Source: a virus
Lineage: Duplodnaviria; Heunggongvirae; Uroviricota; Caudoviricetes
Virus record (IMG/VR): IMGVR_UViG_2681813454_000002
Coordinates: 1 to 46,959 of that record
Length of the DNA stretch: 46,959 bases
Direction: 5' to 3' (one strand)
In this document: positions 16,922 through 17,970 of the stretch, one piece after another
Layout of the letters: each line of letters begins with the position of its first letter
Position numbering within the stretch: position 1 is the first letter of the stretch
Position numbers and translations under genes: made by a program
The notes under the pieces: model-generated
Told to the model about the DNA's origin: nothing
Seen by the model: the letters and a program-made list of their open reading frames with translations, nothing else
Databases searched by the model: none

Positions 16922-17970
16922 ATGCTTAATACTGTAAAAATATCCAGTTGTGAGTTAATCAACGCCGACTGCCTGGAATTTATCCGGTCGTTACCCGAAA
17001 ATTCTGTTGACCTGATAGTCACGGACCCGCCGTACTTTAAAGTGAAGCCTGAGGGCTGGGATAACCAGTGGAAGGGCGACGATGATTACCTGAAGTGGCT
17101 GGACCAGTGTCTGGCGCAGTTCTGGCGGGTGCTGAAACCTGCCGGAAGTCTTTACCTGTTCTGTGGTCATCGCCTGGCATCTGATATCGAAATCATGATG
17201 CGTGAACGCTTCAGTGTGCTGAACCATATTATCTGGGCGAAGCCGTCCGGACGCTGGAACGGATGCAACAAGGAAAGCCTGCGGGCGTATTTCCCCGCCA
17301 CAGAGCGCATTCTGTTCGCGGAACATTATCAGGGGCCGTATCGTCCGAAAGATGCCGGGTATGCGGCGAAGGGCAGTGCACTGAAACAGCATGTGATGGC
17401 CCCGCTGATTTCTTACTTTCGTGATGCGCGCGCGGCCCTGGGGATAACGGCAAAACAGATTGCAGATGCCACAGGAAAGAAAAACATGGTGTCGCACTGG
17501 TTCAGTGCCAGTCAGTGGCAGCTACCGAATGAAAGCGATTATCTGAAATTACAGGCGCTGTTTGCCCGGGTGGCAGAAGAGAAGCATCGGCGTGGTGAAC
17601 TGGAAAAGCTCCACCACCAGCTGGTGGATACGTATACCTCACTGAACCGGCAGTATGCGGAGCTGCTGAGTGAATATAAACATCTGCGGCGGTATTTTGG
17701 CGTGACGGTGCAGGTGCCGTATACCGATGTGTGGACGCATAAACCGGTGCAGTTCTATCCCGGGAAACATCCGTGCGAAAACCGGCAGAAATGCTGCAGC
17801 AGATAATCAGCGCAAGTAGCCGTCCTGGTGATCTGGTTGCGGATTTTTTCATGGGGTCGGGTTCAACGGTAAAAGCGGCGATGGCACTGGGGCGTCGTGC
17901 GATTGGTGTTGAGCTGGAGACCGGACGTTTTGAGCAGACAGTCAGGGAAGTTCAGGATTTAATCGTTTGA
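16922..17970 (+). pseudogene. DNA methyltransferase (beta-class N6A/N4C type), interrupted by a frameshift
   Basis: Motif IV DPPY (IVTDPPYF) in the 16922-17806 frame; motif X/I (..KPAEMLQQIISASSRPGDLVADFFMGSGST) in the 17773-17970 frame; the two frames join at an A4 run (17778-17781) where A5 would restore HPCEKPAEML. Confidence 0.75.

Follow-up and report, generated by a model that had tools for sequence, protein, structure and literature searches.

In the window, i.e., the whole stretch of 46,959 nucleotides of DNA that was analysed, a DNA methyltransferase gene lies divided between two overlapping reading frames, in a neighbourhood where the features follow one another in the order RusA, Q, promoter-like site, terminator, 65-aa ORF, terminator, methyltransferase, tRNAs and third terminator. 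The features from Q onwards are listed below (coordinates in the window, strand, description and, in brackets, the basis of each assignment).

15528-16349, plus strand: antiterminator Q, 273 aa, Pfam Antiterm type (UTI89 annotation, PF03589)
16355-16382, plus strand: candidate pR'-like late promoter, TTGATT-16 nt-TAAATT (read by eye, directly after the Q stop)
16432-16457, plus strand: strong intrinsic terminator, tR'-like, also given as 16432-16447 (a stem with 6 G-C pairs and a 4-nt loop, followed by the tail TTTTTTATGA)
16574-16771, plus strand: conserved hypothetical ORF, 65 aa (WP_000917749.1 in UTI89 and O104:H4)
16758-16785, plus strand: second of the intrinsic terminators that separate Q from the methyltransferase, also given as 16758-16775 (GCCTTCCGCAGTGAAGGC, then TTTTTTATTT)
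16922-17806, plus strand: ORF1, methyltransferase residues 1-285 with DPPY and the central region, then an out-of-frame tail and stop (ORF list, PF01555)
17773-17970, plus strand: ORF2, methyltransferase residues 286-349 with the KPAEML motif and the FMGSG AdoMet-binding motif (ORF list, PF01555, alignment to solved structures)
17778-17781, plus strand: A4 run, the frameshift site, within codon K286 of HPCEKP; A5 in all relatives (sequence, alignments)
18020-18269, plus strand: three tRNA genes, CAU (annotated as tRNA-Ile in relatives), Arg-UCG and Arg-UCU (tRNA calls, relatives)
18284-18309, plus strand: intrinsic terminator after the tRNA cluster (terminator scan)

ORF1 starts with an ATG and encodes 294 aa, including the sequence TDPPYF, the DPPY of which is encoded at 17024-17035, and it ends in a 9-residue out-of-frame tail, NRQKCCSR, followed by the stop codon. 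ORF2, which has 65 aa when read from a GTG, is translated as V-RKPAEMLQQIISASSRPGDLVADFFMGSGST... (also given from the GTG as VRKPAEMLQQIISASSRPGDLVADFFMGSGST...), with FMGSG at 17848-17862, and is placed in the -1 frame relative to ORF1, with an overlap of 34 nt between the two. The original prediction had assigned motif IV to the first of these frames and motif X/I to the second, and both assignments stand, the latter through the KPAEML...FMGSG segment. The junction of the two frames, GCGAAAACCGG, holds the run of four A residues, and the addition of a single A to this run produces one ORF of 1050 nt with a continuous product of 349 aa, which reads ...GKHPCEKPAEML... and ...YPGKHPCEKPAEMLQQ... 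across the junction, so that the HPCEKPAEML expected from a run of five is indeed restored.

In the repaired protein, DPPY occupies residues 35-38 and FMGSG residues 309-313, i.e., motif IV is N-terminal to motif I, and the order of DPPY, target-recognition region and FxGxG is that of the beta class, the two halves of which, normally in one continuous frame, are found in two frames in the window. The PF01555 profile (N6_N4_Mtase) is matched by the repaired protein over positions 1-219 of 221, with 148 bits and E = 4e-43 (score cut-off of 26.7 bits), and the same match is divided in the unrepaired window into profile positions 1-111, in ORF1, and 165-219, in ORF2. This arrangement is no chance pair of ORFs, because every close relative has A5 and a single 1050-nt gene. 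The initial description of the locus as an orphan methyltransferase split by a one-base deletion in an A-run is correct.

The prophage module around the split gene

The greater part of the window belongs to a lambdoid prophage that is near-identical to one in the strains AR_0372 and Nord58, with 99.75% identity over positions 1-15486 and 100% over positions 24001-46959. The module formed by Q, the methyltransferase, the tRNAs and the holin (approximately 15487-20300) is of the UTI89 type instead, with identities of 97.8-99.95%, and the rest of the window has matches to the genes for lysis, terminase, portal and tail. The mosaic joints between the AR_0372/Nord58 flanks and the UTI89-type module are located at approximately 15486-16443 and approximately 20300, and Q itself differs across the mosaic, given that the window has the 273-aa Antiterm type and AR_0372 a Q of 229 aa. 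At position 3793 of the window, a run of C5 is found where AR_0372 has C4, in an ead/Ea22-like gene that is annotated as frameshifted in AR_0372 and that is apparently intact in the form present in the window.

The Q gene is annotated as 'antitermination protein' (WP_000762880.1) in the UTI89 stretch, which is 97.8% identical, and the PF03589 match falls on this same 273-aa gene. The pR'-like promoter that follows it agrees with the consensus at 8 of 12 positions, just below the threshold of the scan, and was for this reason missed by the consensus scan. Following TAAATT, the sequence continues as TTGCTCTAACGATGGG, with an AACGAT pause-like element at approximately 16390-16395, and then enters the GC-rich terminator (window 16350-16460). 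We take this segment of 16350-16460 to resemble closely the lambda pR' (TAAATTTGACTCAACGATGGG), its sigma70 pause signal and tR'.

In Stx phages, a Q-dependent late promoter governs the region that lies downstream of Q, and a homologue annotated as 'DNA methylase' is found in Stx2 phages in the same module as stx2A. The organization of this lambdoid prophage places the methyltransferase among the first genes of its Q-antiterminated late operon, with an expression that would be late. The two terminators between Q and the methyltransferase are consistent with the silence in the lysogen that the literature reports for the family, and intact copies would be transcribed only once Q lets the RNA polymerase pass these terminators, following induction.

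Around the methyltransferase, the annotated near-identical relatives have RusA, Q, the 65-aa ORF, the tRNAs, a DUF1737 remnant and a holin, and no restriction endonuclease is annotated in those that cover the window from 1 to approximately 20300, as had been anticipated when the locus was described as having no endonuclease partner nearby.

The Rfam family STnc100 (RF02076) is matched twice over its full length, at 18345-18535 (136 bits) and 18813-19022 (161 bits), the gathering score being 47, in the interval from the tRNA cluster to the lysis genes that in Stx phages houses stx and nanS-p. Further downstream, at 19244-19471, a 75-aa ORF corresponds to the N-terminal DUF1737 remnant of a NanS-p (SASA esterase) gene, which is annotated as incomplete in UTI89 and is present at this site as a full 617-aa esterase in AR_0372 and O104:H4.

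Relationship to the M.EcoGI/M.EcoGII family

Judged from its sequence, the split gene is a prophage copy of the M.EcoGI/M.EcoGII family of beta-class, non-specific N6-adenine DNA methyltransferases, a family that is already characterised experimentally, and the gene is thus not a new one. When the 1,049-nt region was compared by megablast with 5,426 complete E. coli genomes, 2,790 homologous places were obtained in 1,972 genomes, and the top matches (UTI89, S88, APEC O1, IHE3034, the type strain and others, with 99.9% identity over 1,050 nt) are each annotated as one 'DNA-methyltransferase'. The DNA of the copies that encode WP_000935515.1, found in UTI89, S88, APEC O1 and other ST95-type strains, is the same as that of the window bar one A, their run being A5 and the gene intact, and their flanking 2 kb are 99.95% identical to the window; the repaired protein is identical to the UTI89 product at 349 of 349 residues.

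The repaired protein is also identical at 340 of 349 residues to the copy in E. coli O104:H4 2009EL-2071, which is probably M.EcoGI, and at 331 of 349 residues to M.EcoGII (GenBank EGT69837.1), an approximate figure, as the sequence printed in the supplement of the SUPREM paper (PMC11551740) was used as machine-read text with a few errors, the true identity probably being about 96%. M.EcoGII and M.EcoGI, which come from the same strain, are themselves identical at 333 of 349 residues (PMC5778455). Murray et al. (2018, PMC5778455) described M.EcoGII as a prophage-borne, beta-class enzyme of 349 aa that methylates adenine whatever the sequence context, that is unexpressed in the lysogen and harmful under constitutive expression, and that is one of 'a very large family' found in E. 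coli prophages and also in phage 1720a-02.

In relation to M.EcoGII and M.EcoGI of O104:H4 C227-11, which act as DNA/RNA methyltransferases, the window copy has the same 349 aa after repair, an identity of approximately 95-97%, the same order of DPPY, central helix-turn-helix target-recognition region, HPCEKP and FMGSG, carriage on a lambdoid prophage and no endonuclease partner, and the neighbourhood in O104:H4 is also the same (Q, 65-aa ORF, methyltransferase, tRNA-Ile/Arg/Arg). The window copy differs in its frame, which is broken at K286 (A5 to A4), and in 9-18 amino acids of the central region. Forde et al. called M.EcoGI and M.EcoGII orphan methyltransferases, and the missing endonuclease partner is to be expected here, because the gene belongs to this orphan family and lies in a Q-dependent late operon.

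Homologues annotated as 'DNA methylase' occur in the same late-region module of the Stx2a, Stx2c and Stx2d converting phages and of phage 1720a-02, from which the window prophage is distinguished by its lack of stx genes and by a DNA identity of approximately 92-97%; the 80-mer of the junction matches phage 1720a-02 and many Stx2 phages at 94-97% identity. At a greater distance, alignments to solved beta-class methyltransferases (including chains 8urk and 9c3u) have E values of 1e-25 to 1e-15, and M.RsrI (1eg2), CcrM (6pbd), M.MboIIA (1g60) and DpnA (5hfj) share the DPPY and HPxxKP...FxGSGT halves, with HPCEKP aligned to the HPTQKP of the solved enzymes, directly ahead of the FxGSGT AdoMet loop. 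These solved enzymes are, in contrast, sequence-specific, and are without the central insert of approximately 150 residues of the M.EcoGII family.

Rarity of the four-A form and the origin of the break

The comparison with homologous prophage methyltransferases, which the original prediction had proposed as a check, was made with a query of 80 nt centred on the A-run against complete E. coli genomes. The 1,487 records with a match contain 1,844 places, among which there is no exact match to the A4 form and no identity of 99% or above, the closest places all having 98.8%, which corresponds to the single gap. The A4 form is also absent from the 18 phage records matched by the 80-mer, and an exact scan with a 28-mer found no A4 match in IMG/VR, the JGI metagenomes or the GTDB species representatives. 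The equivalent A5 28-mer has at least 120 matching contigs in IMG/VR, A5 is the form present in L001, L002, L005, L006, L008, L009, L012 and L014, and the intact alleles that were looked up (the UTI89-type and allele 0) are found on at least 1,000 contigs each.

The exact 294-aa truncated protein is nevertheless present in two other assemblies. The first, L003 (4.2 kb), is a scaffold assembled from the gut metagenome sample SAMD00115066, from Japan; it is identical to positions 16305-18269 of the window (1,965 nt), including A4, and diverges downstream. The second, L004, is a Logan contig of 1,041 nt (run ERR10499440), with 100% identity to the window. When hypothetical A4-truncated proteins were built for six other common alleles and looked up, two were found, on 5 and 2 Logan contigs, so that the loss from A5 to A4 has been seen on three allele backgrounds in all, and none of the four look-ups of A6 variants gave a match.

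As a control for these sightings, one-base losses were also counted at the other homopolymer runs of the gene, with the following results.

A5 run at 17778 (the split site): 2, 5 and 2 contigs per allele background
A5 run at 17480: 3, 1 and 1 contigs per allele background
T6/T7 run at 17844: 9, 2 and 6 contigs per allele background
A4 run at 17604: 1 contig
C4 and T4 runs: 0 contigs

The site at 17778 is therefore not special, because losses at other A5 and T6/T7 runs are equally or more frequent, and its interpretation as a mutational hot spot or a selected null site was rejected on these counts. The hot-spot reading is also undercut by the quality of the contigs, given that several of the A4 Logan contigs hold 2-5 homopolymer-length indels within 1-4 kb (L138, L140 and L143 have several each), which is the signature of noisy-read error.

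Breaks elsewhere in the gene are also found outside the raw-run assemblies. In finished genomes, two of 58 evenly sampled copies are annotated as 'frameshifted', both at other runs (one A4 to A3 near 17604, and one T7 to T6 near 17844), and two of 50 full-length copies in IMG/VR are broken elsewhere, by a 10-nt and a 2-nt duplication.

Two observations on individual Logan contigs may be added. In L140, Q is also split by a change from A5 to A4 (positions 346-1034 of the contig), with three further homopolymer indels in the same 2.7 kb, which illustrates the unreliability of Logan contigs for calling frameshifts. In L008, L009 and L014, which come from different runs, both CCCGGG sites and one CCGGG site are changed to CC(T)GG or CCCGG at the equivalents of 17355-17357, 17564-17569 and 17757-17762 in the window; the exact lesion varies slightly, and these changes seem to reflect a systematic read error tied to the motif, and not inheritance.

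For the window itself, we lean towards a real, very recent and sporadic slippage deletion, i.e., a null allele or young pseudogene, and infer that the deletion is present in the DNA rather than in the assembly alone. The comparison with AR_0372 supports this reading, given that there are no indels over 22,959 nt, and that the single one over 15,486 nt falls where AR_0372 carries the annotated frameshift. The possibility of an error-ridden source assembly was discarded on the same grounds, as there is one other indel in approximately 38 kb of near-identical comparison, and the window form is intact there. The sample of L003 is probably Illumina-sequenced, and, if this is the case, an A5-to-A4 error in this scaffold is very unlikely, and L003 shows that a genuine A4 allele very probably exists on this exact background. 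A null allele of this kind would be one of many homopolymer frameshifts scattered in this gene.

On the other hand, there are no substitutions in relation to the UTI89 allele in 1,049 nt, which means that the deletion is either extremely recent or not real, and the A4 sightings are mostly in contigs assembled from raw runs (Logan), several of which have the error signature. It is quite conceivable, if somewhat doubtful, that the homopolymer was under-called and that the strain has A5 and an intact 349-aa methyltransferase, the split being an error of consensus or assembly. Such an error would account for a repaired gene that is base-for-base the allele found on at least 1,000 contigs and for the count of zero among the 1,844 complete-genome places; it also fits the similarly low loss rates at all runs of five or more bases of the gene in raw-run assemblies, the several homopolymer indels in each of L138, L140 and L143, and the other error-like lesions in runs of the ERR1049xxxx range, to which the run of L004 also belongs. 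It is less easily reconciled with the window, which has no other homopolymer discrepancy over the approximately 38 kb of near-identical comparison, or with the independent L003, which has the same A4 and no other difference over 1,965 nt.

Of the three outcomes offered when the locus was first described, the pseudogene and the consensus error are thus retained, and the third, a slippage-prone expression, is not supported by the evidence that follows.

Possible expression of the split gene and predicted effect of the break

Recoding, split-enzyme and phase-variation readings of the locus are, even when taken jointly, improbable. In the first two of these, the split gene would still be active, either through low-level -1 frameshifting at C_GAA_AAC (giving HPCEN-PAEML) or through the non-covalent assembly of the ORF1 and ORF2 products, which would mean a reduced dose of an enzyme whose overproduction is toxic. 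In favour of this, ORF2 lies in the -1 frame with its 34-nt overlap and keeps a complete KPAEML...FMGSG segment from the GTG, and beta-class methyltransferases act as dimers. In addition, A_AAC is able to support weak single-tRNA slippage, and split methyltransferases, whether natural or artificial, are known.

Such activity is very unlikely all the same, as the junction, C_GAA_AAC, is no X_XXY_YYZ heptamer, and the 78 nt downstream have a minimum free energy (MFE) of -25.3 kcal/mol, with z = -1.25 against shuffled sequence, 21 of 200 shuffles folding as well when pseudoknot-free structures are considered. No good Shine-Dalgarno sequence precedes either the GTG at 17773 or the ATG at 17791, the two-frame arrangement is not conserved in the complete genomes, phage records, IMG/VR, JGI metagenomes or GTDB representatives, and the equal frequency of the corresponding losses at other runs gives no indication that this configuration is selected. 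A run of four A residues is too short for transcriptional slippage, and both this process and a programmed frameshift were rejected on the lack of a slippery heptamer, the 4-nt run, a downstream fold not distinguishable from that of shuffled sequence and the lack of conservation.

The A-run might also act as a contingency tract that switches a phase-variable methyltransferase at high frequency, as the loss from A5 to A4 on three allele backgrounds could suggest. This is the least probable of the readings, since the tract has only 4-5 nt, A5 is essentially fixed and no A6 form was found in the four look-ups, and tracts of 4-5 bases are far below the lengths that give high-frequency switching. 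The other runs in the gene behave alike, and the gene is silent in the lysogen (PMC5778455), so that switching there would be without phenotype.

It is likewise hardly to be expected that A4 is a real allele in circulation whose two overlapping ORFs give traces of active enzyme, through weak -1 slippage at GAA_AAC or assembly of the two fragments, in which case it would be a toxic, non-specific adenine methyltransferase in a natural low-dose form, or that the loss is selected through the m6A-dependent restriction of hyper-m6A phage DNA. The split carries no sign of a special mechanism, and the gene is an ordinary copy of a well-known E. coli prophage methyltransferase that is either frameshifted or mis-assembled. 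A more general caution is that a recurring homopolymer frameshift in assemblies of raw runs is no evidence of a hot spot or of function, since all comparable runs of this gene have a similar background of losses.

For the preferred reading, the recent null allele, the effect of the break can be outlined from the structure of the enzyme. In the AlphaFold model presented in PMC11551740, residues 1-134 and 260-349 form the catalytic Rossmann domain, and this model, the Pfam match and the alignments to solved structures all put the break within the catalytic domain. With one A lost from the A5 in the K286 codon, ORF1 stops after nine wrong residues, and its product is without the last 64 residues, which comprise the KP and the FxGxG AdoMet-binding part of the Rossmann fold. 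This product should be catalytically dead, a loss of activity that is predicted because ORF1 is without the cofactor-binding segment and ORF2 without a convincing ribosome-binding site. In the lysogen, the deletion would be neutral, because the gene is unexpressed there.

In terms of annotation, the locus should be labelled as a frameshifted, non-specific adenine methyltransferase of the M.EcoGI/M.EcoGII family, and not as a pair of hypothetical or partial methylase ORFs, and the importance of the finding beyond annotation is small. In intact copies, the broad adenine methylation of the replicating phage DNA would guard the progeny against many restriction systems, a protection of progeny DNA that was suggested by Murray et al. 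(PMC5778455). If the deletion is real, the phage produced by this lysogen should be without the blanket m6A protection that its intact relatives are thought to have, and its establishment would be narrowed in hosts with restriction systems.
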